DNA of 18,257 nt, from IMG/VR virus record IMGVR_UViG_2600254997_000004. One strand, 5' to 3'. Origin of the DNA: a virus (Duplodnaviria > Heunggongvirae > Uroviricota > Caudoviricetes). Both the position numbers and the translations under genes were made by a program. Shown here one piece after another: positions 615-18,257 of this stretch; within the stretch, counting starts at the first letter, position 1, and each line of letters starts with the position of its first letter. Under the pieces are notes generated by a model, which was not told where the DNA came from, did no database searches, and saw only the letters and a program-made list of their open reading frames with translations.

Positions 615-618
615 GGGA

Positions 619-1317
619 TTACTGCGAAAGTTTGTTAATGGAAAGGAAGCCGCCAAAGTTGCCGACGTTATTGCGAAACTTACAGCCGCTCAGGCATTTG
701 CTGCATTTATCCTTCGTGATATCGGACGTCGGCTGGTCATATTCATCCGCGACAGCCGGACCGTGATAACCACACTCATCACCGCGATAGGTCCAGGTGC
801 AGGTGTTGGCCAGCATGATACGCCCCGGAAAAACAGCACCATCCGTTTCCGTCGGTGTGGACAACACAAAGGAGGCACTGACCGCACTCAGTTCGCTGCA
901 CTGCTCGATGCGCCAGCGGCTGATCACCTCCTGCTCCGGATCGGCGTCGCTGTTTCCGTTGACGAAGTTCACCGCATCCAGAAAACGGGCGTAAACCTTA
1001 CGCCTGACCACCGTTCCGCCGACCAGACTCTGCAGGTCTTCCGCCATCCCCGTGACCATGCCGTGCAGGTTAGAAACCGTCAGTGTCGGACGGGCAGCAC
1101 TGCCCTTGCCGTTCAGTTCAAATCCTGTCCCCTGAATGGGGTATGCCTGATACTGCCGCCCCTGCCAGGTAACCGGCTCACCTTTTTCGTTCTGCTCATT
1201 ACAGAAAAAATAACGTTCACCACCGACCTCTGTCAGATCGATTTCCCAGAGCACCACCTGGGCTGACTGAGTGAGGCGTGTCGTCTCATGATGTGTTTCC
1301 TGTGGAATATCCTGCAT
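619..1317 (-). CDS. L: Minor tail protein L (lambda gpL-like, 232 aa)
   Basis: ATG at 1317 preceded by AGGAGG with 6-nt spacing; same length as lambda gpL with a Cys-rich C-terminus; sits between M and K as in lambda. Confidence 0.85.
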   Translation of the reverse strand: MQDIPQETHHETTRLTQSAQVVLWEIDLTEVGGERYFFCNEQNEKGEPVTWQGRQYQAYPIQGTGFELNGKGSAARPTLTVSNLHGMVTGMAEDLQSLVGGTVVRRKVYARFLDAVNFVNGNSDADPEQEVISRWRIEQCSELSAVSASFVLSTPTETDGAVFPGRIMLANTCTWTYRGDECGYHGPAVADEYDQPTSDITKDKCSKCLSGCKFRNNVGNFGGFLSINKLSQ

Positions 1318-1326
1318 CAGAGCCTC

Positions 1327-1656
1327 CTATGCCACGACCTGTTCAAAATCTGCCGTTATGGTTACCCACAGCGCCCCCACGCTTGCCGACCATTTACGAC
1401 AAACCACCCTAATCGGTTTCCAGTCATAAGGTGGCGTCCACTGAAATGCGCGGACGCCACCGTGCCGTTCCAGAAAGGCTTTTAAAGATGGGTGTTCACA
1501 TTTACGAACACGTATCGTCACGCTGTAAGTCGACAACTGGTTATTCAGTCCCGCCGCACGACGCTGTTCATAACCATCGCCCAGCTTCACTGTCACCACT
1601 TTCGGCTCTGATACCACATTCATATCCGGGCGCACTTTCCAGTGAAACGTCTCCAT
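1327..1656 (-). CDS. M: Minor tail protein M (lambda gpM-like, 109 aa)
   Basis: 109 aa, the lambda gpM length; its ATG overlaps the tape measure stop (TAATG); conserved position between H and L. Confidence 0.85.
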   Translation of the reverse strand: METFHWKVRPDMNVVSEPKVVTVKLGDGYEQRRAAGLNNQLSTYSVTIRVRKCEHPSLKAFLERHGGVRAFQWTPPYDWKPIRVVCRKWSASVGALWVTITADFEQVVA

Positions 1657-4600: not shown

Positions 4601-4730
4601 GCATACGGGCAGAAGACCGTTCTGCATCGCTGGCTGCACCATTCAGAAGGTTTTTGATACGGGGGATTTCATTTTTAAACTCTGCCGCATCAATCCCCAA
4701 ATCAATGACCAGGTTGGCTATCTGGTCCAT
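1656..4730 (-). CDS. H: Tail tape measure protein (lambda gpH-like, about 1024 aa)
   Basis: Long coiled-coil-rich ORF; C-terminus NNDGTNGQIGPAALKAVYD matches the lambda gpH C-terminal motif. Start placed at ATG 4730 (MDQIANLVIDLG, GGAGGTG upstream); the ORF-track start at 4760 is a TTG extension. Confidence 0.9.
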   Translation of the reverse strand: MDQIANLVIDLGIDAAEFKNEIPRIKNLLNGAASDAERSSARMQRFMERQTQAARQTTQAASSAATAASVHAQTVEKNAQAHERMAREVEKTRQRMEALSQKMREEQAQAMALAEAQDKAAAAFYRQIDSVKQANAGLQELQRIQQQIRQARNSGGIGQQDYLALISEVTAKTRVLTQAEEEGTRQKVAFIRQLKEQATRQNLSSSELLRAKAAQLGVSSAAEVYIRKMERAGKATHSLGLKSAAARQEIGVLIGELARGNLGALRGSGITLANRAGWIDTLMSPKGMMLGGVIGGIAAAVYGLGKAWYDGQKEGEEFNRQLSLTGHYAGVTAGQLWTLSRAISGNGITQHAAAGALAQVVGSGAFRGNDIGMVARAAAQMERSVGQSISDTINQFKRLKDDPVNAAKALDNELHFLTATQLEQIRILGEQGRSSDAARIAMSALAEETGRRTADIDNNLNALGSTLQTLSDWWKQFWDAAMNIGREDSLDAQIATLQEKVSRAKRLPWTASSSQVEYDQQRLNELQEKKRQKDLQDAKEQAERNYQEQQKRRNAENAALNRMNETEAARHQREIARINAMQYADQAVRDAAIQRENERYEKALASGKKKTRETRNDEATRLLLQYSQQQAQVEGQIAAARQSAGIATDRMTEAHKQLLALQQRISDLDGKKLTADEKSVLARKDELIQALTLLDVKQQELQKQTALNDLKKKTIQLTSQLAEEERAQRQQHDLDIATVGMGDQQRQRYQVQLSLRQKYQQQLEQLRRDSEQKGTYNTDDYRKAEQALTESLNRQLNENRRYWQQLEIAQGNWKNGAMRAFQNFTADADNAAGTAEQMLTAAFNSAGNALATFCTTGKLNFKSFTASLLSDLAKIMAQMSMMQAVKGIGSAFGWGSAATASVTPNADGGVYQSADLSRYSGTVVNRPTFFAFAKGAGVMGEAGPEAILPLRRGADGKLGVVADIGGSGMAMFSPQYNIEINNDGTNGQIGPAALKAVYDLGKKAAADFMQQQARDGGRLSGAYR

Positions 4731-5052
4731 AACGCACACCTCCGGAAATACCTTCCCCAAGATGCATCAGTTCTTCGTCCGTTCGCTCCGGTATCCCGTT
4801 CTCTTCCGGTAAAAGGCTGAAATCAGCCACCGCAGCATCACTGCTGCCGGACACCATTCTCACGATCAATGCCTTCAGCGAGGCAAACTGCGCATCCATC
4901 CACACATCACTGAAGCTCTGCATCCGGAAATAATCGCCCCACTCACCAAGCTCAGTGGCCGACATTTCCGACAGCATCCGCCGCCAGTCTGCCCGCCGGA
5001 ACTCCCGGGCAAGCCGCATGACAAACTGCATTTCCCGCGTCAGGACTTTTCC
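4702..5052 (-). CDS. T: T segment of the G-T tail assembly chaperone, reached by programmed -1 frameshift from G
   Basis: The frame encoding ...MQFVMRLAREFRR... is open from 5064 to the stop at 4702 and lies -1 relative to G. It overlaps the last G codons at heptamer G GAA AAG (5052..5046), analogous to the lambda G GGA AAG slip site. Confidence 0.75.
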   Translation of the reverse strand, partial: GKVLTREMQFVMRLAREFRRADWRRMLSEMSATELGEWGDYFRMQSFSDVWMDAQFASLKALIVRMVSGSSDAAVADFSLLPEENGIPERTDEELMHLGEGISGGVRYGPDSQPGH

Positions 5053-5429
5053 GGCGTCAGCGCCTCATGCTCATCATCCCCGGCATTATCAATGGTCCCC
5101 ATACCGCTCAGCGACAGAACCATCTCCGCCCCCGCACCCAGGGCATCATACGACCATGTTGTAATAACGGATGCGCAAAGCGTCTCTACATCCTTAGACT
5201 GATCCGCATTCCACAGTGAGCGGGAAACCAGCCAGGCATTGATATCCATCCCCATCCGCAGAAAAGCAATCTGTCGTTCAGCCTCCGGCAGTTCTCCCTC
5301 TTCGGCATCAAACTTTGCCGTTCGCTGCTGAACAAACGCCAGATATTCAATTCTCTGCAGCCCGGACAGCTCACTGAGCACCACGGACTGCTTTTCATAA
5401 TTAAACGTGCCCTGTTTCAGAAACATCAT
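5040..5429 (-). CDS. G: Tail assembly chaperone G (lambda gpG-like)
   Basis: MMFLKQGTFNYEK...LSELSGLQRIEYLAF resembles the lambda gpG N-terminus (MFLK...); GGTGGAG Shine-Dalgarno upstream of the ATG pair at 5429/5426; acidic C-terminal tail; the ORF-track start at 5468 is a TTG extension. Confidence 0.85.
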   Translation of the reverse strand: MMFLKQGTFNYEKQSVVLSELSGLQRIEYLAFVQQRTAKFDAEEGELPEAERQIAFLRMGMDINAWLVSRSLWNADQSKDVETLCASVITTWSYDALGAGAEMVLSLSGMGTIDNAGDDEHEALTPEKS

Positions 5430-5441
5430 GTTCTCCACCTG

Positions 5442-5466
5442 AAAAAAAGCCCCGGATAACCGGGGC
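5442..5466 (-). terminator. Intrinsic terminator-like hairpin after major tail gene V
   Basis: On the minus strand GCCCCGG-TTAT-CCGGGGC (7-bp GC stem, 4-nt loop) is followed by 7 U; lies between the V stop (5487) and the G ribosome binding site. Confidence 0.6.
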
Positions 5467-5486
5467 AAATGATGAGTATCGTCCTG

Positions 5487-6230
5487 TTAACCTGCGGCGC
5501 TGACAGCCACCGTAGCCACTGCCACAAAATCGCCGTCAGAAGTCATGCCCACAATGCTGACACTGCCCTGCTTCACGCCTTTCACCGTGGCCACAAGCCC
5601 GTTCAGGGTCACCGTGGCAGTCTGTGGATCTGTCGAATGCACACTGATCGCTTTGCCACTGGCTCCGTCAGGTTTTACTGTAAAGGTCAGCGTGGTGGTT
5701 GCTCCCACTTTTACACTGGCAGATGCCGGTGCCACCGTCAGCCCGGTAACGCCCACGGTTTCAGTGCCTTCCTCTGCCAGATACGGACGCCCCACACCGC
5801 TGATTTTCACTGTGCGGGTCATCACGTCTTTTGAGGCAATGGTTTTACCCAGTGAGCTCAGCCAGCCACGGAAAACATCAACAGTGCCGTTGGGATATTT
5901 GATACGAAACGCGCAGACTTCACCGGAGTCGAACAACTGAACCAGTTTTTTCTGCCCGCTGTCACCCGGACGCCAGGCCAGCGTCGCCGAAGTATCACCA
6001 ACGGATTCCTGCCCCTGGGTTGTCGTTTTCCAGTCTGCATCTTCATCATCGAGATAAGTGTCATCTTCTGCATCAGCGGTCATTTCGCCAGGTTGCAGAT
6101 CCTTCACCATCGCAAGACGCAGCCAGTCAGTGTCCGACAAAGGGTTCGCAAATGCGTCGCCGTTGCCGGTATACATCCAGAACGTCGTTCCCGCACCTTT
6201 CGTTTTTGCCAGTGGATTTGGTGTGGTCAT
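5487..6230 (-). CDS. V: Major tail protein V with C-terminal Ig-like (Big_2-type) domain
   Basis: Start at ATG 6230 (MTTPNPLAKTKGAGTT) preceded by AAGGAGG; N-terminus resembles lambda gpV (MPVPNP...KGAGTT); Thr/Val-rich C-terminal Ig-like segment. Confidence 0.9.
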   Translation of the reverse strand: MTTPNPLAKTKGAGTTFWMYTGNGDAFANPLSDTDWLRLAMVKDLQPGEMTADAEDDTYLDDEDADWKTTTQGQESVGDTSATLAWRPGDSGQKKLVQLFDSGEVCAFRIKYPNGTVDVFRGWLSSLGKTIASKDVMTRTVKISGVGRPYLAEEGTETVGVTGLTVAPASASVKVGATTTLTFTVKPDGASGKAISVHSTDPQTATVTLNGLVATVKGVKQGSVSIVGMTSDGDFVAVATVAVSAAG

Positions 6231-6240
6231 TACCACCTCC

Positions 6241-6642
6241 TTAATTCGTGTACGTGATCTGGTACGTGATTTCCGCCATCGCCCAGGTGGCCATCTCATT
6301 ATCACGTTGATAGTTAAAACCGAGTGGGATCAGGGTGTCGATGAGTCCGGAAAGTGCCGGTACATCATTCAGGGCCGGGAAAATGGTGCTCTCCATCCAC
6401 ATATCCAGCTCTGAATCCGGTGCTTGTGCCCGGATGAAGACAGCAATATGCAGAACAGCCTGCCAGTCATCTTCATCCGTCATTTTTCCGGTGTACTGAG
6501 CATCACTCAGCCACACCGACACGGCAGGCAGTTCCTGCGCATCAACAAATGCCGGAAGCCCGTCAAAAAACGTGGCGCTGTCTCCACACTGTTCCCGAAG
6601 GCGTGCCAGTACGACCTGGCGGATTTGTGTATGTCGGTTCAT
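6241..6642 (-). CDS. U: Tail terminator protein U (lambda gpU-like)
   Basis: MNRHTQIRQVVLARL...ATFFDG resembles the lambda gpU N-terminus; its ATG overlaps the Z stop as ATGA (translational coupling). Confidence 0.85.
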   Translation of the reverse strand: MNRHTQIRQVVLARLREQCGDSATFFDGLPAFVDAQELPAVSVWLSDAQYTGKMTDEDDWQAVLHIAVFIRAQAPDSELDMWMESTIFPALNDVPALSGLIDTLIPLGFNYQRDNEMATWAMAEITYQITYTN

Positions 6643-7217
6643 CGGGTCAGCCATAACCTCAGTTGTTGTTTCAGTGCATAACCCAACTGTTTCGGCATTT
6701 CCGCAGCAATGATGCGGTCGCGGGCATCTTCAAATGCCTGTGTCAGCGGTCCGGACAACGGGATTTTCACCACATCAATGGGGTAACGATTTTTGCCATC
6801 AATACGCCGCATCACATGCCAGCGACCATTCGCCAGTTGCTGAATAAACGCATCCCGGAAAAGATATTTACCCACCTTCAGCACACTGCCACGGTACTGC
6901 AGTTTTCCACCACGCCGGGCCAGTCTGACCCGGGCTGTCCCCAGCTTAATGGCGGGCAGATTGCCCCGGTTGACGCGGATCCTGGCCGTCATTTTTCCTG
7001 ACGGACTGGCTTTAAACACCCGGACACGCTGACGTACCAGTTTCAGGGGTATCCCTTTCACCTGGTTATCTCCCGCAACGGTATTCCCGGCAACCTGCCG
7101 GGTGGCAACCGAGACCGCTTTCTGTGCCACACGGTTTATCGCCCATGCGCTGGCCTGTGGCACCATACGGGTATCAAGGCTGTTCAGATTGCGGATGGCA
7201 TTCTCAAGCCCCTTCAT
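6639..7217 (-). CDS. Z: Tail completion protein Z (lambda gpZ-like, 192 aa)
   Basis: 192 aa, same as lambda gpZ; motifs IKLG.ARV and NGRWHVM.R..GKNRYPIDVVKIP match my recollection of gpZ; AGAGGTG upstream of the ATG. Confidence 0.85.
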   Translation of the reverse strand: MKGLENAIRNLNSLDTRMVPQASAWAINRVAQKAVSVATRQVAGNTVAGDNQVKGIPLKLVRQRVRVFKASPSGKMTARIRVNRGNLPAIKLGTARVRLARRGGKLQYRGSVLKVGKYLFRDAFIQQLANGRWHVMRRIDGKNRYPIDVVKIPLSGPLTQAFEDARDRIIAAEMPKQLGYALKQQLRLWLTR

Positions 7218-7228
7218 CCCACACCTCT

Positions 7229-7468
7229 TTACTCAATAAAGATCATTGGCTTACCGTTAAAGCGTTCATGCCGTGTGACCGTCCAATGTTGTCCGTCATA
7301 AACAACGCGATCCCCGCGCCGTGGGCGGTATCCCAAAGAAAACACCACCAGAGAGACAGCAGGTCCGGACAGAGCATTCAGCTCTGCCAGTGTTTCGCCC
7401 GGGATCACAGCCATATCGACATCATTAATCGAGGGCTGTCTTTCCCATCTTTCTGACCGTGATCGCAT
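7229..7468 (-). CDS. Small head-tail connector or head completion protein (FII-position gene), 79 aa, function not recognised
   Basis: ORF with ATG start, tightly packed between the upstream small structural gene and Z in the same orientation; no recognisable motif. Confidence 0.5.
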   Translation of the reverse strand: MRSRSERWERQPSINDVDMAVIPGETLAELNALSGPAVSLVVFSLGYRPRRGDRVVYDGQHWTVTRHERFNGKPMIFIE

Positions 7469-7497
7469 CCATACGCGCTGCCAGCCGAGAAAAGGGA

Positions 7498-7821
7498 TCA
7501 GACATTGAGTTTTACCGGCACTTCTTCTGCACTGGTTCCGGCATCTGCCCAGACAACCCCGACCAGCGGATCAGAGCCGCTGTTAGTCAGCTGAACTTTT
7601 CCGGACTTCAGATAAACCTTCTTACCCGTTTTCATGTCATCCGTTTTCAGCTTAGGCAGGATAAACACACCTTCGGTCATGCCGTCGCCTGTTTCACCCT
7701 GTGGAATATCGGTCAGCGCCACCGCAAAAACATCACCCACCTGCACCAGATCTCCGCTGCTGATGGCTGCACTGGCAACAATCGCCACCGTTTTTCCTTC
7801 TTCTACAAAATTCTTTGCCAT
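7498..7821 (-). CDS. Small capsid-associated protein (DUF2190-like; possible head decoration or connector protein)
   Basis: Start at ATG 7821 (MAKNFVEEGK) with GGAG 6 nt upstream, placed just downstream of the capsid terminator; Gly/Val-rich beta-type sequence of a kind often found right after major capsid genes. Confidence 0.6.
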   Translation of the reverse strand: MAKNFVEEGKTVAIVASAAISSGDLVQVGDVFAVALTDIPQGETGDGMTEGVFILPKLKTDDMKTGKKVYLKSGKVQLTNSGSDPLVGVVWADAGTSAEEVPVKLNV

Positions 7822-7864
7822 AACTGTCTCCGCACAGCCCCGTTCAGGGGCTGATTTCAGGTAC

Positions 7865-7883
7865 AAAAAAAGCCCTTACGGGC
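7865..7883 (-). terminator. Intrinsic terminator-like hairpin after the major capsid ORF
   Basis: On the minus strand GCCC-GUAA-GGGC (GNRA-type loop) is followed by 7 U, 25 nt after the capsid stop at 7908. Confidence 0.55.
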
Positions 7884-7907
7884 CATCAGAGTTGTTGTCT
7901 GCGACGT

Positions 7908-9866
7908 TTACGCCGTACATTTCACCAGACCGCGGTGATCAACTGGCGCGACACCGGCGTCAATACGCACTTTCGTTGTCACGCCATCCACACTGAAGCC
8001 CTCCATCTGATCAATATATGGCGTATCCACACCGTTGAGATAAGCCACTTCAATCGTATCGGAGCCTTTGGACGCAGCCAGGTAGAAGGTGGTCTGGCTG
8101 TTATCATCAAGACGAGGCTCTGCAATAACGGTCGCAAAATCTTTCACCGGGTTAATAATACCGGCGTTAATGTCAGCCCCCTTGACACTTGAGGAGCGAA
8201 TGACCTGGTTAGCAACAGACTCCATCGCCGTCGGTACCAGTACGAACGCAGGACGAATATTCAGATGACGCTCCCCCTCTTTCTGAACGCGCATCAACTG
8301 GCGGGCTTTATCCAGCGATGCCACGTCCATTGCAGCGCTCTCCAGTACGTTTGCATGTTTCGCTTTATCGAACAGACTTACATTATCTGTGGAGATTTTC
8401 GGGTTAGACGTCAGAATGGCATAAACCAGATCGGCAATAGTGGATTTCGCCGCACGGCCCAGTTTCATCGGGACATCGGTCAGCATATTCAGATCATCAT
8501 TGATAATGGCCTGACGGGTGATACTGAACAGCTCGCCATAGGTCGCCAGTGCAATAGTGGCCTGTTTATCTCCGGTGGTGACGTATTTATATTCCGCCCC
8601 TTCACGCACCTGACGCAGAGCACTGAAGCCCCCCATACCCACACGATGGGCAATTTTAAAATCAGACAACTGACCTTTCCGCGTCCACTGTTCATAGGTT
8701 TCAGGGGCATCTTCCCAGCCCTGCAGAATGGCTTTGTTCGCAACATCCAGCAGAATATTACCGAAGTCAGACGTACTGTGTGTGAACGCCGCACCGACCA
8801 TCTGCATCGGGTTATAACTGGAAACCCCAATACCCCGTTCAGTCAGTGACATACGGGCATATTCACGCAGGGTCATCCCGTTGTAGACATTATCACGTTC
8901 GGTTTTTTCAAATCCGGCACGCGCCATCAGCGCCTGGCGGATCCCGTCCCCCACAAAATTACCGTTACCGGCATAAATATGAGCCGGGGTATTTTTATTG
9001 GATGGCGTGGACTCGCGCCCCATCTCGTTCAACAACTTTTCGCGGGCCTGCTCCAGCGAACATTCAGGATCGGCAAGACACTGAGCCTGCAGCGTCTGAT
9101 AACGCCCGCCAAACATGGCAAACAGATCATTAATACCGTTTACACGCGCTTTTTGCTCTGCCAGTACCTGCGCACGGATACTGTTTTCATCCACCACGGG
9201 TGCTGCTGCCTGCACTGGCGTCCGGGAGGCTGCAGGTTCATCATCCTGTACGCGTGGAGCACTGTTGCGTGGCGGAGTAATCATGTTTCGAATGGATTCC
9301 GGCATCTTTTTAAATTCCTCTGTACGTTTTGACTGAATACATGCCATTGCCTTAACGGCTGGCGTTACCTGATCAGCAAATCCCTGTGCCAGACATTCGG
9401 CACCGGACATCCAGGTCTCATCCGCCAGCATGGCAGCAATTTCATCGGTGGTTTTCCCGGTTTTCTGTGCATAAGCGGGTAACAGAACCGCCTCAACCTT
9501 ATCGAGCAGGTCGGCATAGGTGCGCATGTCCTCCGCATCACCGCCCGTAAAGCCAAATGGTTTATGAATCATCATGAAGGTGTTTTCCGGCATAATGACC
9601 GGGTTTCCCACCATCGCAATGACCGACGCCATTGACGCCGCCACACCGTCGACATAAACGGTAATGGACGCACCATGTGTTTTCAGCGCATTAAAAATGG
9701 CGATGCCTTCAAAGACATCGCCACCCGGTGAATTAATATGGAGATTAATGTGGGTGATATCGCCCAGTGCATTCAGATCACTGATAAACTGCTTCGCTGT
9801 AACACCCCAGAAACCAATCTCGTCATAAATATAAATATCCGCGTCACTCTGGTGACCAGCCTGCAT
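7908..9866 (-). CDS. Prohead protease (ClpP/S14-like), scaffold-like linker and HK97-fold major capsid protein in one ORF
   Basis: N-terminal part has ClpP-like motifs (INSPGGDVFEGIAIFNAL, SMASVIAMVG, MMIHKPFG); an Ala/Gln-rich linker follows; the C-terminal roughly 370 aa look like a major capsid protein. Start placed at ATG 9866 (MQAGHQSDADIYIYDEIG) after the portal stop; the ORF-track start at 10127 overlaps the portal. Confidence 0.75.
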   Translation of the reverse strand: MQAGHQSDADIYIYDEIGFWGVTAKQFISDLNALGDITHINLHINSPGGDVFEGIAIFNALKTHGASITVYVDGVAASMASVIAMVGNPVIMPENTFMMIHKPFGFTGGDAEDMRTYADLLDKVEAVLLPAYAQKTGKTTDEIAAMLADETWMSGAECLAQGFADQVTPAVKAMACIQSKRTEEFKKMPESIRNMITPPRNSAPRVQDDEPAASRTPVQAAAPVVDENSIRAQVLAEQKARVNGINDLFAMFGGRYQTLQAQCLADPECSLEQAREKLLNEMGRESTPSNKNTPAHIYAGNGNFVGDGIRQALMARAGFEKTERDNVYNGMTLREYARMSLTERGIGVSSYNPMQMVGAAFTHSTSDFGNILLDVANKAILQGWEDAPETYEQWTRKGQLSDFKIAHRVGMGGFSALRQVREGAEYKYVTTGDKQATIALATYGELFSITRQAIINDDLNMLTDVPMKLGRAAKSTIADLVYAILTSNPKISTDNVSLFDKAKHANVLESAAMDVASLDKARQLMRVQKEGERHLNIRPAFVLVPTAMESVANQVIRSSSVKGADINAGIINPVKDFATVIAEPRLDDNSQTTFYLAASKGSDTIEVAYLNGVDTPYIDQMEGFSVDGVTTKVRIDAGVAPVDHRGLVKCTA

Positions 9867-9912
9867 CCTGAACCAGGAATTATTCTTCGGACTGGTCGTC
9901 GGTGTACTGCGG

Positions 9913-11388
9913 CTACTGTCGTTTCGTTGCGGCACTGCTGCCTCCTTTATCACTGGCCGGATCGGTATCAAATACCAGATCCAGCTTGCGGTTTTCATCA
10001 ATTTCGGCCTTGCGCCGACGTTTGACATCATCCGGATTACGACCACCTGCACGTACCCAGTCTGATTCTGTCGCCGCTCCACCACGAATCTGGATTTTCC
10101 AGGCCTCAGCCTCCTTAACAGGGTCAATCCACGGCATCACTGGTCCGGAATACACCGCGGTATACAGTGAAGAACGGTCAAGATCGCGGGGTAGCCTGAT
10201 AACACCGGATGCCACAGCCTGTTTCAGCCAGGCACGATACATCGGGCGGGTGACGGCACCAATAAACCAGTCCTGCAGGATCAGGTAGCCATCAGTAGAC
10301 TCAACCAGTTCCTGACGCTGGGCGCTGTAAGTGCCGTTATAGTTGCGTGCCGTACTGGAAAAACTCAGACGACTGCCCGCCGCCACGGCACGCAACTGAC
10401 CATTACGAAAAGTTTCAAGGTTAGGATTGGGACGATCCGACTTCACCATTCCGATTTCTTCGCCGGGTTTCAGATCGTCGTAAATAATGCCTGGCTGAAT
10501 GGTAAGCTCGCGTTCATTCTCCTTGCTGTAATTACCATCCGTTTCATAGCTCTGTCCGTCGCCTTTGCGGATGTACATCCCCAGAGCAGCGGCGACCCTT
10601 GCTGCAGTCAGCTCAGAATCTTCATACTCTTTCAGGGCGCTGAGGCGGATCAGCACACCGGACAATAAAGACGTCCCGCGCATCTGGTGCAGACGGCGAA
10701 CAAATTTAAGATGCAGCATTCGCTCTGCATCCACTTCTTTGGTTTCCATCTGCCGTCCGGATACGGGACGGCTTTTATACACCAGATATTTTTCGGGACG
10801 CCCCCAGTCATCAACAAACACGCCCTGATTCAGCCTGTTGCTCTCATCACTGGTCATGGGAATAAAGTCCGGCTCGAGCGCCTCCAGCCAGAAATGAACA
10901 CCGGCAGAAGGCGTCAGGCTGTTTATGCGCCCGGAAACCATCTGGGCAAACACCTCACCATCGCGCAGCCAGGTACGCAGCATCAGACGTTCCAGCATCG
11001 GACGGGTAAACTGCCCGGTGACTTCCGGACTGACAGACCATTCACTCCATCGGGTGCGTATCTCCGCTGCCAGATCACGGGCAATGGCCCCATTGCGTAA
11101 TACCGGATGTGGCTCGACAATAATCCCGTTTTTCCCCACCACCCGTTCTTCCAGCTTGTCAAATACACCAATAACCAGATCGTGGTTGTTATCAAGGTAA
11201 CGGGCCTGCTCACGTAACGACACGGCCCCGTACTGGCTTAACTGGTCGGCAGTTCGGTTTTCCCGCCGGGCTTTGTGTGTCCGCGTCGTTTTTACGGCCT
11301 CATAAGCCTGGATCACCGCACGGGAACGCAGCCTTGCCGCTTTCCATCCTGGTGAAAAAACGCCAATCACATCATCAAGAATTGCCAT
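9913..11388 (-). CDS. Portal protein (lambda gpB family)
   Basis: About 490 aa between W and the protease-capsid gene; start at ATG 11388 (MAILDDVIG) overlapping the W stop (TGATG). Confidence 0.8.
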   Translation of the reverse strand: MAILDDVIGVFSPGWKAARLRSRAVIQAYEAVKTTRTHKARRENRTADQLSQYGAVSLREQARYLDNNHDLVIGVFDKLEERVVGKNGIIVEPHPVLRNGAIARDLAAEIRTRWSEWSVSPEVTGQFTRPMLERLMLRTWLRDGEVFAQMVSGRINSLTPSAGVHFWLEALEPDFIPMTSDESNRLNQGVFVDDWGRPEKYLVYKSRPVSGRQMETKEVDAERMLHLKFVRRLHQMRGTSLLSGVLIRLSALKEYEDSELTAARVAAALGMYIRKGDGQSYETDGNYSKENERELTIQPGIIYDDLKPGEEIGMVKSDRPNPNLETFRNGQLRAVAAGSRLSFSSTARNYNGTYSAQRQELVESTDGYLILQDWFIGAVTRPMYRAWLKQAVASGVIRLPRDLDRSSLYTAVYSGPVMPWIDPVKEAEAWKIQIRGGAATESDWVRAGGRNPDDVKRRRKAEIDENRKLDLVFDTDPASDKGGSSAATKRQ

Positions 11389-11600
11389 CAGAACCTCGCC
11401 AGCCGGTACCCGGGATGCCCCCGTCGTCGTGTAATCAGAGCCGCAAGGCGGCGCTCCCACTCCTGCCGTCCCTGCCGGATCTCAGATAAGTTTTCCATTG
11501 TCATCTGCTGACCATTAAAGGTGACGGATTTTCCGTCCAGCACCGCCATTTCAGCTTCCGTATAACGCTGAATCATGGCTTCGATATCATTCTGGTTCAT
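11388..11600 (-). CDS. W: Head-tail joining protein (lambda gpW-like, 70 aa)
   Basis: Small protein ending ...ITRRRGHPGYRLARF, comparable to the gpW C-terminus; its ATG at 11600 overlaps the terminase stop (ATGA) with GGAGG 6 nt upstream. Confidence 0.75.
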   Translation of the reverse strand: MNQNDIEAMIQRYTEAEMAVLDGKSVTFNGQQMTMENLSEIRQGRQEWERRLAALITRRRGHPGYRLARF

Positions 11601-13699
11601 AACCATCCTCCGGAAGTCAGCCAGGGGTTAACATCGTCAGTTACTGTTTTCTTCCGTTTTTGTTTTTTAACAGGCGTGGATACCGGTTCCGGTGAGGGTG
11701 ACGGTTCGGTACTGTCCGGGACACACTCCAGCCAGGTTTCCCGGCTCGCCCACTCCGGTGCATCCGGCCAGCGGATCTTTTCGTATCCATGCAGAATGAC
11801 CAGAGCCTCGGCATACACCATCAGGTCAAAAGCTTCGTTGGCACCGCGACCCGGCTTACTCCATTTCCCGTCACTACTCCGCTCTTCATACGTCAGTTCG
11901 TCGTAAAACCAGCTCCCCAGCCAGTCAGGGAAATGCACATAGCCGGGACCTGGCGAGTCACGCCATAACGCGTTATTCACCCGGTCTTTCAGGGCATCCG
12001 TCTGAAGAAGCCAGAGCGGCACATCACCTGCGGCCTGCGCCCGTCGGCCCGTTCGTCCGGTGTTATCAGGGAATGTACGGGTGATCAGTTTTGCGCGCCG
12101 GATGCTGTCGCCCTTAAACAGGTAAATACGTTTACCAAGGCCATCACGACGGCAACGACGCCAGAATTTATAGGCATTATCAGTGACCCCGTCTTCACCG
12201 CCGGAGTCCACCGCCATTGCCATCAGTCGCATTTGTTGAGAAGGATCGGAGGCCAGCGGCCAGCTTTTATGAAAAACATCCGTCAGCAGGACATCCCAGT
12301 CTTCCGGATAGCTGGCCGGATCAATTCGCTGGCTCTCCCCGTCGCTGTCACCGCGCAATGACTGCGTGATGTTGTAACGATCAATAATCCAGCGTTCGCC
12401 ACGGCTGCCATAGCCCGTTACCTGAACCACAAAACGGCGATGACGTCCCGCCTGCACATCAACTGTCGCCACCAGGAAATTAACGCCATCCGGCACACTG
12501 CGGGAAGGAACTGGCTCTGCCCGCTGCTCAAGCAGTTCACTTTTTCGTTGCTCCATGCTGGCACGGGGAAGATAAGGTAATCCCCAGTCGGTATTGATAA
12601 CCGTCTTGAGTGTTTCTTCACTTCCGGTTGTCTCGTATTCCTGTTCTGCAGTAAGCAGTTTGTAAACGAGTTGCGAGAGTGTCTGGTAAGCAGCTGCCGG
12701 ACCCTCCATCCAGAATGACGCAATACGTGAGCGTCGGGGATCACCATAACGACTGCCATCCGCATTGATGGATTCACCATCCCGCAACCAGACCCCACGT
12801 CCGTTCAGCTCACGTTTTTGTTCAGGCATAATCCGTCCTGAACAGGAAGGACACTGAATATAAGCCGCCTCACTTGCCAGCACGGGATCGGCAATATCAC
12901 GGAAACCAGCAACCACATCGCCGCAGGGCTGAAAATACTCACCACAGTGTGGACAGGGCCAGTACCAGCGACGGCGATCGCCACGGTTATAGAGCGACAG
13001 TATCCCCGTGGTTGGTGGAGCCTCATGCGGTGAAGTCCGTCGCCATTTCACATCCTTCACATCCCTGCCGGGGGAACTCTCCACCAGCGTCATACCACTG
13101 GACATAAATGTGGTGGTACGTTTTGAGGCAAGAGAGAAGGCATCCCCCTCGCCATCAATATCTTCCGGAAAACGGTCATAATCCGTCAGCGCCACGCATT
13201 TATAATCTGATGAGGACATGATATTGACTGACGGCCAGCCGATTTTCAGGTAGTTGCCAGCAAGGAATGTTCTGTCATAAACGTTGTTGTCATTTTTGTT
13301 CGGACTCAGGCGACTGACCACTTCCGGGCTGACGCGAAACGTTCTGGCAAGTCGTTTTTTGGAGTGTTCGCGGGCTTTTTCCTCCGTCATCTGAATGATC
13401 AGCATATCAGCAGGATCGCAAATCACATTGTAAATCACCCAGCCGTCAATCAGGCCGATAGTCTTGCCAGTTCGTGCCGGGCCAACAAATATCACTGCGT
13501 CGTATTCACGCGAGGCCAGGCAGTTCATCGGCTCAATAACATACGGTGCCACCAGCGGATCCCACGGGACTGAATTCCCGGCCCCCATGGGCACCCGCAT
13601 ATACTGAGCAACGGCATCAGCAACCCGCATTCGTCTCGGTGCGCGAAGGATATAACCTGAATCGGTTCGTGCTGCCTTTGCGGTTTCCTGATTCAGCAT
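11597..13699 (-). CDS. Terminase large subunit (lambda gpA family, 700 aa)
   Basis: 700 aa with a Cys-rich CPHCGEYF...CPSCSG segment like lambda gpA (CPHCGEE...); start overlaps the Nu1 stop (TAATG) with AGGAGGAG upstream. Confidence 0.9.
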   Translation of the reverse strand: MLNQETAKAARTDSGYILRAPRRMRVADAVAQYMRVPMGAGNSVPWDPLVAPYVIEPMNCLASREYDAVIFVGPARTGKTIGLIDGWVIYNVICDPADMLIIQMTEEKAREHSKKRLARTFRVSPEVVSRLSPNKNDNNVYDRTFLAGNYLKIGWPSVNIMSSSDYKCVALTDYDRFPEDIDGEGDAFSLASKRTTTFMSSGMTLVESSPGRDVKDVKWRRTSPHEAPPTTGILSLYNRGDRRRWYWPCPHCGEYFQPCGDVVAGFRDIADPVLASEAAYIQCPSCSGRIMPEQKRELNGRGVWLRDGESINADGSRYGDPRRSRIASFWMEGPAAAYQTLSQLVYKLLTAEQEYETTGSEETLKTVINTDWGLPYLPRASMEQRKSELLEQRAEPVPSRSVPDGVNFLVATVDVQAGRHRRFVVQVTGYGSRGERWIIDRYNITQSLRGDSDGESQRIDPASYPEDWDVLLTDVFHKSWPLASDPSQQMRLMAMAVDSGGEDGVTDNAYKFWRRCRRDGLGKRIYLFKGDSIRRAKLITRTFPDNTGRTGRRAQAAGDVPLWLLQTDALKDRVNNALWRDSPGPGYVHFPDWLGSWFYDELTYEERSSDGKWSKPGRGANEAFDLMVYAEALVILHGYEKIRWPDAPEWASRETWLECVPDSTEPSPSPEPVSTPVKKQKRKKTVTDDVNPWLTSGGWL

Positions 13700-14193
13700 T
13701 ACTCCTCCTGCTGTAATTCCTCCTCATCATCCGCACCTGCTTCAGTCACCCGCAGGGCTATCTGATCGCGCAGATCATCAATAATGGACAGAACACGGCT
13801 CACAGCGGCAGGCTGCAGACCGCAGTCACGTTCCAGAATATCCGGTAATGTCTCCAGCACCTGCACGACCGCTTTTGCCCAGATGGCAAACTCCCGTCTG
13901 ACATCACTGGCCGGAATGAGTTGTGCCGTTTCCTGTTCGAACTTAAGACGCTCACGTTCAGACTGATACCAGGCTTTGCGCTCATGCGCGTCCATTTCGC
14001 CTTCTGCAACCGGCGGTGGCAATGCCAGAAATGCCGACACAATATCAACCACCCGATAAAGCTTGAGGTTGCTTTCATGCCCCCCTGCAACGGGTAGATT
14101 TTGCAGCCTTGCCGCAGCAGTCTGGCGATGTACACCTGACAGTGCCGCCAGTTGACTGATATTCAGCGTCAGATTTTTTAACTCTCGATCCAT
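13699..14193 (-). CDS. Terminase small subunit (lambda Nu1-like, 164 aa)
   Basis: N-terminal HTH-like segment NISQLAALSGVHRQTAAARL; about 175 bp downstream of the putative cosN; GGAG upstream of the ATG. Confidence 0.8.
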   Translation of the reverse strand: MDRELKNLTLNISQLAALSGVHRQTAAARLQNLPVAGGHESNLKLYRVVDIVSAFLALPPPVAEGEMDAHERKAWYQSERERLKFEQETAQLIPASDVRREFAIWAKAVVQVLETLPDILERDCGLQPAAVSRVLSIIDDLRDQIALRVTEAGADDEEELQQEE

Positions 14194-14379
14194 ACCCGCT
14201 CCAGAATGTTTTAAACATGCATCTTGCGAACAACTTTAGGCAAACGGTGTTAGTGATGAACAAAAAACAATCAAAATCGACACCGCAAAAATAAAACTAC
14301 TGCAATATCAATCAATTACAGCAGTGGTGATGACGAATGAAATTTCAAAAACTAGCCTTTTTCCGCGACGCTCCCGCCC
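14194..14379 (-). other. cos site: putative cosN (14368-14379, GGGCGGGAGCGT on the minus strand) plus the cosB-like region extending to the Nu1 start
   Basis: Minus-strand sequence ...GACGGGTCCT...CACG GGGCGGGAGCGT CGCGGAAAAAGG...TTCGTCATCACC... parallels the lambda right end and cos (ACGGGTCCT...TACG GGGCGGCGACCT CGCGGG...TTCGTCATAACT) as I remember it; spacing to Nu1 is similar; GTGATGA repeats at 14255 and 14325. Confidence 0.65.
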
Positions 14380-14550
14380 CGTGGCAGGCCACCCCACCAG
14401 GAGGACCCGTCAGCCTGACAGCCATGACGAACGTCTGATACAGCGCCCTGCATGAATGGCATCGGGATAATCCAGAAAGGAATAGCATCGTACCTACAAG
14501 AATCTGTGTGAGCGTCCTGTTTCTTCCACCCCCGCACAGGACTGGCGAGC

Positions 14551-14727
14551 ATGAGGGACAAACCCACGAATCATAAACGCGGTAAAAACCCGGTGTGCAT
14601 CGTTTTTGATTATTCCCGCACACTCACGCAGAAGGAATTCCCCGTCGGGCTACGATCATGGTTAATGCGGGAATACGGCGACGATACAGCGCATGATGTG
14701 TCAGGCTTGAATACCTTTATCCGTTAA
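14551..14727 (+). CDS. Hypothetical 58-aa basic protein, convergent with rha
   Basis: ATG-initiated ORF MRDKPTNHKRGKNPVCIVFDYSRTLTQKEFPVGLRSWLMREYGDDTAHDVSGLNTFIR; weak ribosome binding site; below the ORF-track length cutoff. Confidence 0.25.
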   Translation: MRDKPTNHKRGKNPVCIVFDYSRTLTQKEFPVGLRSWLMREYGDDTAHDVSGLNTFIR

Positions 14728-14808
14728 AAGGGATATCAGTTAAGTTATCCCGTGCAGGGTATAAGCCATTATCAAGCCCACCCGTAGATAGGCTTTGTAA
14801 TGACATCT

Positions 14809-15333
14809 TCAATTAATCAGCAGTTCAGGCTGTGTCACCTGCAAAATGTATTCATGCTCGACAGCCAGGACACGCTTCTCTTTCTTCCGTTCGTTCATTA
14901 ACCGACTGCCGATCGTACCTTTCAGCTTTGAGCGTGTTTCTTTGATGGCGTAGCGGTGCTGCATTTCTTCGCCAATTGCCATGCGGCGGCTCAGTTGCTC
15001 TGCCATCCAGTTGAATGCTGCGATATAGCTCTCCTTGATTGCCGCAGCAGCTTTCCCGGTGAACCCCATCACAACCATGATCCAGCCATCTTTCGTCAGG
15101 CTGTACATCGGGCGAACCTTGCCCTGCTCATCGATATAATCAGCCGACGCAAAATTGCGTTGGCTAAACTCACGCGAGCAATCAGCCTTAACCTGCTCGA
15201 TTTTCCTGAGAACATCACCGTGTCGCTTGCCGAAGTACTTGGCAATTTTTCTGGATGTGGTAACGACCTCTCCGTTTTTGGCTTGCACCATTTCTCGGAA
15301 GTCGAAGGCTGGAATAACTGAATGATTATTCAT
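14809..15333 (-). CDS. rha: Rha-family phage regulatory protein
   Basis: Start at ATG 15333 (MNNHSVIPAFDF...) with AAGG upstream; IAKYFGKRHGDVLRKIE resembles the Rha family signature (FGKRHD.VLRDI); the ORF-track N-terminal extension overlaps Rz and a terminator. Confidence 0.65.
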   Translation of the reverse strand: MNNHSVIPAFDFREMVQAKNGEVVTTSRKIAKYFGKRHGDVLRKIEQVKADCSREFSQRNFASADYIDEQGKVRPMYSLTKDGWIMVVMGFTGKAAAAIKESYIAAFNWMAEQLSRRMAIGEEMQHRYAIKETRSKLKGTIGSRLMNERKKEKRVLAVEHEYILQVTQPELLIN

Positions 15334-15476
15334 AGCGTCTTTACCTTTTAGAAAGTGAGCCTGTCTCACAGAAAAGCCGCCCGAGAGAGGTCGCCACCTA
15401 TAACGGCATTTCTCAGGCTCGCTTACTGAAAGGCTCTCGTTAATATGCGCGTGAGATGCGCGTTTACTGCGGACAT

Positions 15477-15499
15477 AAAAAAGCCCCGCATCGCGAGGC
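15477..15499 (-). terminator. Intrinsic terminator-like hairpin after Rz/Rz1
   Basis: Minus-strand RNA GCCUCGC-GAU-GCGGGGC (7-bp stem with one G-U pair) followed by 6 U, 32 nt after the Rz stop. Confidence 0.55.
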
Positions 15500-15530
15500 T
15501 CATTAAATTGACTTTGTGATTTGCAAAAAA

Positions 15531-15998
15531 TTATTTCAGGCATTGCGTCCTGATGTACTCCTGAAGCGTTCTCAGTGCTGTTTGGTCACGGATAATTCCG
15601 TCCCGGATACCGAGAACGTTTCGTCCAGCAACTGAAGAGAGTTCGACGGTGGCATCATTGCCCATGCCGGAGGAGCTGGAGGTTTTGGCTGAGGCTGGCA
15701 CAGGGCATTTTCCTTTGACGAGCACCCGACCACCATTATCAAGCTTACGCCGAAGAGCATCATTTTCAGCTTTCGCATTGGCTAACTCCTTCGTGTATTT
15801 AGCATCGAGTACATCAGCAGCACGCTGGCGTTGCTGCATGTCAGTAATGGTGGCGGTCGCCTGCTTCAGCTCACTGACTTTTTTATCACGCTGCTCTTTG
15901 TAGGCGATGGCGTTATCACGGTAATGATTAACAGCCCATGACAGGCAGAGGATGATGCAAATAACCAGAGCGGAGATAATCGCGGTTACCCTGCTCAT
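15531..15998 (-). CDS. Rz: Spanin, inner-membrane subunit (Rz-like)
   Basis: [34 protein letters not shown] closely matches the lambda Rz N-terminus as I recall it; ATG overlaps the endolysin stop (ATGA). Confidence 0.9.
15572..15778 (-). CDS. Rz1: Spanin, outer-membrane lipoprotein subunit (Rz1-like), embedded in Rz in the +1 frame
   Basis: [19 protein letters not shown] with lipobox Cys, then a Pro-rich mature region ([12 protein letters not shown]), like lambda Rz1 (MLKLKMML...VVGC...PPPPAW); lies entirely inside Rz. Confidence 0.85.
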
Positions 15999-16492
15999 TG
16001 CTGCCCCCACAAACAGACTTCACGCTCAATATCACGACGGGTCATCAGCCCTTTCCATTGCTTACCGCCAGCGTATGTCCAGCGACGTAGCTGGTCACAT
16101 GCGCCTTTGATATCACCCTGGTTTATTTTGCGAAGAAGCGTCGATGTTCTGAAATTACCAGCGCCCACGTTGTAAACGAACGAGTAAAGAGCGCCGCGCG
16201 TTGTTTCCGGTATATCGACTTTGATGTACGGGTTAATTTGTCTGGCGACCATGGCAAGGTCTTTATTCAGGAGGGCTTTGCATTCTGCTTCGGTATACGT
16301 TTTACCGGGAATGATGTCTTTTCCGGTGTGTCCGTGACATACAGTCCATACGCCAACGATATCTTCGTATGGTATGTAGCTGACACCTTCCTGGCCATCG
16401 TCACCACTCGGACCAGTGATGAGCACAGACGCTATGGCAACAGCCCCACCACCAATAGCAGCAGCAACAGCCTTGCGTAATGATGGCGACAT
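15995..16492 (-). CDS. R: SAR endolysin (phage 21 R-like lysozyme)
   Basis: N-terminal Gly/Ala-rich SAR segment ([20 protein letters not shown]) followed by a lysozyme core ([16 protein letters not shown]); very similar to R21 as I recall it. Confidence 0.9.
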
Positions 16493-16707
16493 TATTCACC
16501 TCTCGCAGCCTTACGCTTATCTTCTTTAATCTTGAAATAAAGGTTTGTCAGATACGTCAGCAAGCCAAACACCAGGCTACCCAATACGCCTATTGCCACC
16601 CACTGGGATGGGGAGACTTTGTCCAGCAACTGCAGTAGCCAGTATCCCGTCCCCACCGCTGACGTGGTGTATGACACACCTGTTGTTATTTTTTCCATCT
16701 GGTACAT
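16492..16707 (-). CDS. S: Pinholin (phage 21 S-like) with dual-start motif
   Basis: [10 protein letters not shown]...[40 protein letters not shown] resembles S21; Met1 and Met4 give 71-aa and 68-aa forms; GGGAG upstream of the ATG at 16707. Confidence 0.9.
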
Positions 16708-16807
16708 ACCCCGTCTCCCGTTATCCGGAAGCTGACAACAATAAAAAGCCACCAGTTAATTCCTGATGGCCCTGATGCATAAACGTCATAATACCTGACT
16801 GTTATGA

Positions 16808-16935
16808 TTGACAATAATGATAATGTTTATATAGAAAGGTTCCCGATGTGTGTTACATATCATTTCTCCACGGGGAATATCCCCACGCCAGCGCAGACTC
16901 TTTTACCCGTTCTCTTCTGCGCTGGCTCTTTTTTA
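16808..16935 (+). ncRNA. Candidate small RNA: sigma70-like promoter (TTGACA-N16-TATAGA, 16808-16835) plus two stem-loops and a U-tract terminator (to 16935)
   Basis: -35 TTGACA at 16808-16813 and -10 TATAGA at 16830-16835; hairpin GGGGA-ATA-TCCCC (16872-16884); perfect 11-bp inverted repeat GCCAGCGCAGA/TCTGCGCTGGC (16887-16926) followed by TCTTTTTTATT; antisense to the tR'-to-S spacer. Confidence 0.3.
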
Positions 16936-17115
16936 TTATGCTGCTGCATTTACCTCTGGCACCATGCTTTCTATCTCAACACAATACGTGGTACTTCTTG
17001 TAACCAATATCATAACGATTAATCGACATAGAATTTCTCCCGTGTACAGGAACAGAGTTAAAAAGCCGGAACCGGAATCAAATCACAGGATGACCATCTG
17101 CCAGTGGCAGGTCAT

Positions 17116-17142
17116 AAAAAAAAGGCCGCGCCATGCGCAGCC
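17116..17142 (-). terminator. Strong intrinsic terminator (tR'-like) about 410 nt upstream of the holin gene
   Basis: Minus-strand RNA GGCUGCGC-AUG-GCGCGGCC (8-bp stem) followed by 8 U; its position relative to S mirrors lambda tR'. Confidence 0.7.
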
Positions 17143-17296
17143 AGAACTCACAAGGAAAATGATAGAAGGAAATAACATTAGTGATGTACGCATGGCGCCT
17201 CCCGCTAAGTTCTGCAATGATCAAACAGAATTCGCTACGTGCCCTTAAAACTCAATCATTTAGCCCCTCCAAGGAGGATTCACCATGCGGTTGATT

Positions 17297-17325
17297 TTTT
17301 AATAAACAGTAAACAAAAAAGTCAA
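17297..17325 (-). promoter_or_regulatory. Candidate late promoter (pR'-like) about 170 nt upstream of the tR'-like terminator
   Basis: Minus-strand TTGACT (plus 17320-17325) followed after 15-16 bp by TATTAA/ATTAAA; AT-rich upstream; spacing to the terminator is like the lambda pR'-6S-tR' arrangement. Confidence 0.3.
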
Positions 17326-17328
17326 GGA

Positions 17329-17439
17329 TTATTCATTCTGTTTTTTCATCATCGGCCACAGCAATACCACAATGCCGCAGACCAGAGCGCCATCAGTCAG
17401 TACCAACATTATCCTGCTGGTGAAATCCATCATCACCAT
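17329..17439 (-). CDS. Hypothetical 36-aa hydrophobic peptide (single predicted transmembrane helix, basic C-terminus)
   Basis: ATG at 17439..17437, stop TAA at 17331..17329; MVMMDFTSRIMLVLTDGALVCGIVVLLWPMMKKQNE; no clear Shine-Dalgarno; ends 4 nt before the candidate -35. Confidence 0.3.
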   Translation of the reverse strand: MVMMDFTSRIMLVLTDGALVCGIVVLLWPMMKKQNE

Positions 17440-17573
17440 CACTAAAAAGCAGGATCACAACAGCAAGCAGACACAGTTTATAAAACAATGTTCAGAAAAC
17501 GCATTCAGCATGCCTAAGGTTCTATTCCTACGAATAGCCAACTTGCAACTTAAAATATTATTTATGCAGCCAA

Positions 17574-17813
17574 TTAAATTCTGGTCCTTACAATATCAAC
17601 CTGAAGATTCTTATCTTGTGCTGATTGATAAATGACAAACCTTTTACTACCTGCATTGAAAGAAGTAGACAAAACCAGACAATTATCATAACGAGCAAGA
17701 ACATAATACCAACCATCATTATAATTAATCATTTCATATTCTTTCTTAAACTGCGGTTTGTAATATCCTGTCAGAAATGAAAAAAGCCAGAAATATGCCA
17801 CAAAAGCAATCAT
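17574..17813 (-). CDS. Hypothetical 79-aa protein with N-terminal hydrophobic segment, encoded in the AT-rich island
   Basis: ATG at 17813 (the ORF-track start at 17816 is GTG); MIAFVAYFWLFSFLTGYY then a polar domain; surrounding DNA is far more AT-rich than the rest of the prophage; weak ribosome binding site. Confidence 0.45.
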   Translation of the reverse strand: MIAFVAYFWLFSFLTGYYKPQFKKEYEMINYNDGWYYVLARYDNCLVLSTSFNAGSKRFVIYQSAQDKNLQVDIVRTRI

Positions 17814-17865
17814 CACAATCTCAAAAAAATGTTTTTTATAAATGGCTTATCATAGAAGCATGATA

Positions 17866-18257
17866 CTGATGAATCCCCTAATGATTTTTATCAAAATCAT
17901 TAAGTTAAGGTAGATACACATCTTGTCATATGATCAAATGGTTTCGCCAAAAATCAATAATCAGACAACAAAATGTGCGAACTCGATATTTTACACGACT
18001 CTCTTTACCAATTCTGCCCCGAATTACACTTAAAACGACTCAACAGCTTAACGTTGGCTTGCCACGCCTTACTTGACTGTAAAACTCTCACTCTTACCGA
18101 ACTTGGCCGTAACCTGCCAACCAAAGCGAGAACAAAACATAACATCAAACGAATCGACCGATTGTTAGGTAATCGTCACCTCCTCAAAGAGCGACTCGCT
18201 GTATACCGTTGGCATGCTAGCTTTATCTGTTCGGGCAATACGATGCCCATTGTACTT
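17866..18257 (+). mobile_element. IS10 (IS4 family, Tn10-type) outside end and 5' portion; continues beyond the window
   Basis: From 17866 the sequence reads CTGATGAATCCCCTAATGATTTTTATCAAAATCATTAAG..., which I recognise as the IS10 terminal inverted repeat, followed by the IS10 transposase start; abrupt junction with the AT-rich island. Confidence 0.85.
17973..18257 (+). CDS. IS10 transposase, N-terminal part (truncated by window end)
   Basis: ATG at 17973 (IS10 bp 108) opens MCELDILHDSLYQFCPELHLKRLNSLTLACHALLDCKTLTLTELGRNLPTKARTKHNIKRIDRLLGNRHLHKERLAVYRWHASFICSGNTMPIVL, open to the end of the window. Confidence 0.85.
   Translation, partial: MCELDILHDSLYQFCPELHLKRLNSLTLACHALLDCKTLTLTELGRNLPTKARTKHNIKRIDRLLGNRHLLKERLAVYRWHASFICSGNTMPIVL

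Follow-up and report, generated by a model that had tools for sequence, protein, structure and literature searches.

The AT-rich segment close to the end of the analysed stretch of viral DNA (18,257 nucleotides, in the following called the window) is read, with high confidence, as the 3' remnant of a cargo gene of the TfpB/STM1630 family that was cut by IS10, with the antiterminator gene Q lying outside the window. The observed basis of this reading is homology, the junction with IS10, the truncated state of the gene and the place that Q takes in relatives. The window contains an insertion-disrupted copy of a catalogued prophage cargo gene, an event of a known kind. Several points temper the reading: the IS10 variant in the window differs from that found in E. 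coli O111:H11 at the same site, a 79-aa ORF corresponding to the open part of the remnant has been called separately on several hundred contigs, and the homopolymer indels described below are possibly assembly errors.

Composition and gene order of the window

GC content is 32.2% at positions 17440-17865 (426 bp), and no 426-bp stretch across positions 1-16750 is as low (mean 53.4%, sd 2.8, minimum 46.0). The initial annotation, made from the sequence alone, had described an AT-rich segment unlike the rest of the prophage, and this description was borne out (32% GC against 53% elsewhere). The late genes are on the minus strand, the direction of the late operon being fixed by the holin gene, which starts the lysis cassette (Table 1). 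Rz is followed along the minus strand by Rha, terminase, portal and head genes. No tRNAs were found in the window.

From 9743 to 17866 the window aligns end to end with a prophage of E. coli E2348/69 at 99.5% identity. Over these 8.1 kb, the differences are substitutions, three 1-bp indels and one 8-bp insertion (14411-14418); the 8-bp insertion and one of the 1-bp indels (15524) fall outside the genes annotated in E2348/69. All three 1-bp indels (15524, 17444, 17831) are located in homopolymer runs and two of them frameshift genes; they may represent real decay or assembly errors.

Table 1. Features identified in the lysis-proximal part of the window and in the adjoining IS10 end
Feature	Position	Strand	Basis and remarks
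Rz	15531-16010	-	ORF list and annotation of collinear loci
Lysozyme	15995-16492	-	ORF list and annotation of collinear loci
Class II holin gene	16492-16707	-	PGAP annotation of the collinear E2348/69, 2022H047 and A25 loci, and ORF list; start of lysis cassette
Esr41-like sRNA gene	16847..16936	+	Rfam RF02676, full model, 32.3 bits (far below gathering score 102), E 3e-4
STnc100/PasD-like sRNA element	17113..17318	-	Rfam RF02076, full model, 32.5 bits (below gathering score 47), E 2.4e-5
tciB-like/DUF3927 small membrane protein gene	17329..17488	-	Alignment to E2348/69; 52 aa when intact
3' remnant (last ~97 codons) of TfpB/STM1630-family inner-membrane protein gene	17574..17865	-	Collinear with intact 744-bp gene of E2348/69
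IS10 outside end, running off the window	17866..18257	+	Outside end CTGATGAATCCCC begins at 17866
RNA-OUT	17911-17980	-	Rfam RF00240, 97.3 bits

The 79/80-aa ORF and its parent gene

The ORF that ends at 17574 on the minus strand comprises 79 codons from an ATG at 17813 or 80 codons from a GTG at 17816, and its product begins with the hydrophobic stretch MIAFVAYFWLFSFLTGYY. The ORF list and the translation agree in this respect with the initial annotation, which had reported a 79-aa ORF with a hydrophobic start at 17574..17813.

In 564 complete E. coli genomes there is a match to at least 80% of the 1.1 kb that separates the holin gene from the IS10 end, with identities of up to 99.6%. At the E2348/69 locus, the minus strand encodes a 207-aa antitermination protein which is followed by a 252-bp gap, a 744-bp gene annotated as "hypothetical protein" and a 159-bp DUF3927 gene; next come a plus-strand hypothetical ORF and the holin gene. 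The 744-bp gene is annotated as "STM1630 family protein" in strain 2022H047. An uninterrupted copy is present in E2348/69 (99.6% DNA identity), in phage 434 and in hundreds of E. coli prophages. In a base-by-base alignment, the window is collinear with the 3' end of this gene until 17865/17866, where IS10 begins, and a 1-bp indel is the sole difference over the remnant. The product of the ORF and residues 169-247 of the 247-aa E2348/69 protein have the same sequence, which covers the fifth transmembrane helix (TM5) and the C-terminal beta domain. The full-length family architecture is absent from the window, as no more than the last ~97 codons precede the IS10 end and only 79-80 of these are open.

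A first AlphaFold run with 24 close homologues gave an unusable model (pLDDT 58), while a second run to which distant homologues had been added (41 homologues) reached pLDDT 83 and pTM 0.76 for the intact protein. In the latter model, the hydrophobic start of the ORF corresponds to helix 155-181, the fifth of five long helices, which is followed by a small five-strand domain. What had been taken for an N-terminal hydrophobic anchor is thus an internal transmembrane helix of a larger protein and not the start of a gene. It had also been stated that the protein belongs to no recognisable family and that the segment contains a single convincing ORF. The first of these statements is superseded by the match to a catalogued family (PF27470 TfpB, "STM1630 family protein", phrog_1521), of which the ORF represents a 3' fragment, and the second by the presence of the frameshifted DUF3927/TciB-like gene. 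Judged from the alignment, the 79/80-aa ORF constitutes the final third of a gene of the TfpB/STM1630 family (238/247 aa) that was cut by IS10. The window holds a gene fragment of this family rather than a member protein, and the remnant presumably makes no functional product.

The IS10 insertion and the position of Q

No ORF in 16753-17865 matches the Q families PF03589, PF06323 and PF06530, and the profile search of ORFs therefore confirms the earlier observation that there is no Q-like ORF between the late region and the IS10 end. Q is missing from the window most probably because the window stops 392 bases into IS10. In the O111:H11 strains 88.0502 and 88-19539, IS10 is present at the identical junction. 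The element of 88.0502 has a length of 1329 bp (L003 9308-10636) and is flanked by a 9-bp target duplication (AGCATGATA), with a C-terminal and an N-terminal gene fragment annotated by PGAP on opposite sides of it. On the far side, the N-terminal fragment is followed 250 bp further by a 207-aa Q (PF03589, E 1.2e-57).

Every relative examined has Q and a lambda-like pR'/qut ~250 bp upstream of the intact gene. Q is found immediately upstream of the TfpB-family gene in E2348/69, 2022H047, A25 and phage 434 (Q82-type), and likewise at ten further E. coli loci and in Yersinia enterocolitica (PF06530-type Q). Directly after Q, E2348/69 has ATATTGACTTTTTGAATAACTTTGGGGAAACT (TTGACT-N17-GAAACT, like lambda pR'), and this stretch is ~90% identical to a segment of HK97-, HK022- and mEp-type phages that bears the annotation "promoter / similar to lambda Qut site".

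These comparisons revise the initial annotation in several respects. The segment had been thought to occupy the place of Q, which in intact relatives lies directly upstream of the full-length gene; it had been considered a remnant left after the loss of Q, which at the identical junction in O111:H11 is found on the far side of the IS element; and a pR'/tR'-like region had been placed downstream of the island, where in fact pR'/qut is upstream of it, right after Q and beyond IS10. A comparison with related intact prophages had been set beforehand as the refuting test, and these carry the same island next to Q. The N-terminal half of the gene, pR'/qut and Q of this genome most likely lie beyond IS10 or Tn10, outside the window. 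Q would not have been replaced, and its apparent absence would be an effect of the window end in an ordinary case of prophage decay.

The 392 IS10 bases in the window are 99.7% identical to IS10-left of Tn10 in plasmid R100, the copy on the gltS/jemABC side of Tn10. The element may thus be a whole Tn10, which would put Q ~10 kb away. Over these 392 bp, 8 differences separate the window from the IS10R-type copy that O111:H11 carries at this site. The insertions in the window and in O111:H11 may be separate events at one site, or a single event followed by conversion between IS copies, or a full Tn10 may be present here.

In our best explanation, IS10 (of the IS10-left type, possibly as a whole Tn10) transposed into approximately codon 151 of the 247-codon frame. 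The last third of the gene is left on the near side, where internal Met and Val codons create the apparent 79/80-aa ORF, and two 1-bp homopolymer indels further break the tfpB-like remnant and tciB. A simple insertion would place the duplicated AGCATGATA, then CCGATAAAAATCGCC, then Q, beyond the element. As RNA-OUT is on the minus strand, pOUT points into the tfpB-like remnant. Transcription from pOUT of IS10 can read outward into flanking DNA, and here it may run through the remnant and tciB as far as the terminator at 17142-17124.

An alternative explanation is that Q is truly gone, so that IS10 or Tn10 marks a deletion or rearrangement in which pR' and Q were lost together with the 5' half of the gene and a Q-less cryptic prophage was left. 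Tn10 and IS10 can promote adjacent deletions and inversions, the IS10-left type is typical of Tn10, and the two frameshifts represent other decay nearby; with the far side of IS10 outside the window, a loss of Q by such a deletion or inversion would be compatible with what is seen. However, the junction base is the same as in the simple insertion of O111:H11, where the 9-bp duplication AGCATGATA is intact and Q is found beyond it, and the late genes (9743-17866) are distinguished from those of E2348/69 by substitutions and by the two indels outside annotated genes. We consider a true loss of Q improbable.

Frameshifts, alleles and split copies

Compared to both E2348/69 and O111:H11, the window has a 1-bp deletion in a homopolymer at ~17831-17836 (A7 to A6 on the coding strand), which shifts the frame of the codons between the 79/80-aa ORF and the IS10 end, and a 1-bp insertion at 17444, which breaks the 52-aa tciB-like frame. 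Both cassette genes are inactivated in the window. The segment is present in 682 complete E. coli genomes; the exact in-frame A7 allele was found in 546 of them and the exact A6 allele of the window, which PGAP marks as frameshifted, in only 8.

On 411 contigs an identical 79-aa sequence bears the annotation "membrane protein", and a separate PHROG (phrog_3985) exists for it. In ten places where this ORF was called separately, Q is the upstream gene in all ten, and a PF27470 N-terminal fragment (86-167 aa) is located between Q and the ORF in nine. The N-terminal fragment and the ORF are thus two pieces of a single gene that has been split. Several of these split calls were made on assemblies in which many other genes are fragmented too. 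A phase-variation switch at the A7 run, by which a split protein would be produced, was considered and rejected, given the origin of these calls and the 8 of 682 genomes with the exact A6 allele.

It is extremely unlikely that the 79-aa ORF is a gene by itself which encodes a functional small membrane protein and constitutes a separate moron, as could be argued from its in-frame ATG and GTG starts, its separate annotation and PHROG, and an IS10 pOUT that faces it and could transcribe it, because Q and mostly also the N-terminal fragment precede it, the full-length A7 allele by far outnumbers the frameshift allele, homologues down to 14-27% identity keep the five-helix plus beta-domain architecture, and the starts are preceded by a weak GAG with no clear Shine-Dalgarno sequence in their upstream region.

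A two-gene cassette as portable cargo

The AT-rich stretch is best explained as the promoter-distal part of a cargo cassette of two genes which lambdoid prophages carry after Q/pR' and before the lysis genes. One of them, of the tfpB/STM1630 family, is predicted by the structural model to encode an inner-membrane protein with five helices and, at its C-terminus, a small beta domain; the other, tciB/DUF3927, specifies a 52-aa membrane protein, and the cassette ends with a PasD/STnc100-like sRNA and a strong terminator. In the window, a 37-aa ORF (17329-17442) to the left of the frameshift in the tciB-like gene still matches PF13064 (DUF3927) with an E-value of 2.7e-14, the intact form giving 1.4e-14. 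The gene also matches phrog_1470 ("TciB-like"), and its counterpart in phage 434 is annotated as TciB. The name "Tci" is derived from the P1 tciABC operon and not from an experimentally shown function.

The cassette has a GC content of 36-37%, compared to 51% in Q. The Q gene that precedes this ~1.1-kb unit is of the lambda type in E2348/69, of the Q82 type in phage 434 and of the PF06530 type in Yersinia, and the genes downstream of the unit differ as well. Phage 434 shares the E2348/69 locus (L001 7560-8684, covering tciB, the tfpB-like gene and 117 bp upstream) at 98.8% identity. The characteristics of a moron are found, namely a position between Q and the holin gene in relatives, a deviant GC content and a presence that is independent of the neighbours. 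The earlier proposal of a horizontally acquired moron holds for an AT-rich portable cargo cassette that is associated with three Q families, but not for a stand-alone 79-aa gene or a remnant of Q loss.

Upstream of the intact gene there are weak sigma-70-like matches only, and they do not outnumber those in shuffled sequence. In E2348/69, no strong hairpin is present in the 180-nt leader that connects pR' with the gene (z -0.17), and the stretch that corresponds to the annotated terminator in the leader of phage 434 is degenerate in the lambda-Q context. It is thus possible, although speculative, that a constitutive pR' transcript covers both cassette genes in lysogens.

Our best guess for the intact protein is a membrane-located accessory function in the lysogen or in early late transcription, for example lysogenic conversion or exclusion. 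A more specific idea, which we regard as rather doubtful, is that the intact tfpB/STM1630 and tciB genes form a functional membrane module which heads the late operon and serves superinfection exclusion, defence or host interaction. This idea is consistent with the orphan copies near sseJ in Salmonella and near eltAB in ETEC, and with the relatives in Neisseria and Pasteurellaceae; if true, the window would represent a natural knock-out allele.

Small RNA elements and terminators

The STnc100-like element is located directly 3' of the DUF3927 gene and ends in a strong intrinsic terminator (17142-17124, minus strand), which was found in a terminator scan, consists of GGCTGCGCATGGCGCGGCC followed by T8, and closes the cassette. 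The Hfq-bound sRNA PasD of E2348/69 has been described as structurally homologous to STnc100 and as being near Q and the holin operon (bioRxiv 10.64898/2026.05.13.724894); the element at 17113-17318 is therefore probably a copy of PasD.

The Esr41-like sRNA gene is convergent with the late operon. Its core, CAUUUCUCCA-GGGG...CCCC, is conserved, and it has its own hairpin (CCAGCGCAGA...TCTGCGCTGG) with a T-run terminator as well as a TTGACA upstream at 16810. A 132-aa plus-strand ORF (16850-17248), annotated by PGAP as a hypothetical protein, was rejected as a gene, as it has no family and its first 90 bases contain the Esr41-like sRNA and terminator; it is probably spurious. A second terminator-like hairpin (16745-16773, minus strand), AGGGCCATCAGGAATTAACTGGTGGCTTT with a T-rich tail, is found ~40 bp upstream of the holin start codon, and past the cassette, late transcription must consequently traverse two or more terminators. 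The corrected map of the locus in intact relatives thus reads, along the minus strand, Q, pR'/qut, the tfpB-like gene, the tciB-like gene, the PasD/STnc100-like sRNA with its terminator, the convergent Esr41-like sRNA, and holin.

The TfpB/STM1630 family

The intact E2348/69 protein matches phrog_1521, a PHROG of unknown function, with an E-value of 1.9e-154, and residues 169-247, which correspond to the ORF in the window, match phrog_3985 (E 2.8e-49). Precomputed PF27470 (TfpB) assignments are present on 104 of 104 homologues from a set of 5.8 billion proteins. Searches of Pfam (in a copy predating PF27470), NCBIfam and PADLOC returned no family for either the intact protein or the 80-aa ORF. 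A profile search of PDB sequences gave no match at E-values up to 1, and the five-helix plus beta-domain model had no fold match in PDB or BFVD.

Full-length members, 236-240 aa long, were found in E. coli, Shigella, Citrobacter, Cronobacter, Klebsiella, Enterobacter, Salmonella and Yersinia. A profile search against 1.84 billion cluster representatives retrieved further relatives with the same length and layout at 14-27% identity, and these distant relatives, all annotated as hypothetical, are from Neisseria, Actinobacillus, Avibacterium, Pasteurella and Mangrovibacter. Conservation within the family peaks at an N-terminal motif (GWGSAYFYGWG.S.YYGFPWW...D..ARSL) and around YKPQ.KKEY...WYYVLARY..L.LS, where the C-terminal domain starts. 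The TfpB family is real, and from E. coli to Neisseria and the Pasteurellaceae its conserved form is the full-length protein of ~238 aa.

Copies outside prophages, next to sseJ or eltAB, are informative by association only. The Salmonella member adjoins a single Sif plus GDSL-lipase gene (sseJ), which is the position of STM1630. On ETEC contigs (L007-L010), a TfpB-family gene with 59% identity (5001-5714) lies ~870 bp from eltAB in divergent orientation; it has IS elements on its flanks, and an STb enterotoxin gene is ~3 kb away. The contigs with these eltAB-side copies are rich in IS elements and are presumably plasmids; one of them is a complete record of 112 kb. The arrangement may have been left over from a lambdoid late region in which the toxin genes once resided.

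STM1630 belongs to a gene set that is co-regulated with SPI-2 (PMC2639726). An STM1630 deletion was hypermotile in one screen (PMC4219756), and a follow-up, in which the deletion was made again without the resistance cassette, suggested that some effects of the earlier screen were indirect and polar (PMC4534456). No macrophage replication defect was found for an STM1630 deletion (PMC6785131). Literature searches for TciB and TfpB mostly returned unrelated acronyms. The family is common, with about 680 of 5,426 complete E. coli genomes carrying this TfpB/STM1630 variant; it is conserved and shares the niche of phage-borne toxins, without having an assigned function or a fold relative. The interest centres on the role of the intact TfpB/TciB cassette and little on the window itself.

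Comparison with known systems

As an insertion mutation, the event resembles other IS10/Tn10 insertions, with a canonical outside end, RNA-OUT and, in the O111:H11 relative, a 9-bp target duplication. Nothing about it is unusual. The usual hotspot consensus of IS10 is NGCTNAGCN, and the target AGCATGATA matches it only in part.

Within the TfpB family (PF27470, phrog_1521), the ORF of the window matches residues 169-247 of the E2348/69 member at 100% identity, but the copy in the window is the last third only and does not include the strongly conserved N-terminal motif.

Compared to the morons found between Q and S in lambdoid phages, such as stx, the cassette differs in that it encodes no toxin but a polytopic membrane protein, for which PDB and BFVD gave no fold match. 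It resembles them in occupying the niche downstream of pR', in its foreign composition and in being portable between different Q genes.

The closest counterpart is provided by CPT_434_68 (putative membrane protein) and CPT_434_69 (TciB) of phage 434 (GenBank OL657226), which are the same two genes with 98.8% DNA identity and which likewise are located before the lysis region, after Q and an annotated terminator. The contexts differ, as in phage 434 the Q is of the Q82 type and the cassette is followed by a SASA-family esterase gene, whereas the relatives of the window have a lambda-type Q and a cassette that almost directly abuts the holin gene. Unlike in phage 434, both cassette genes are broken in the window.
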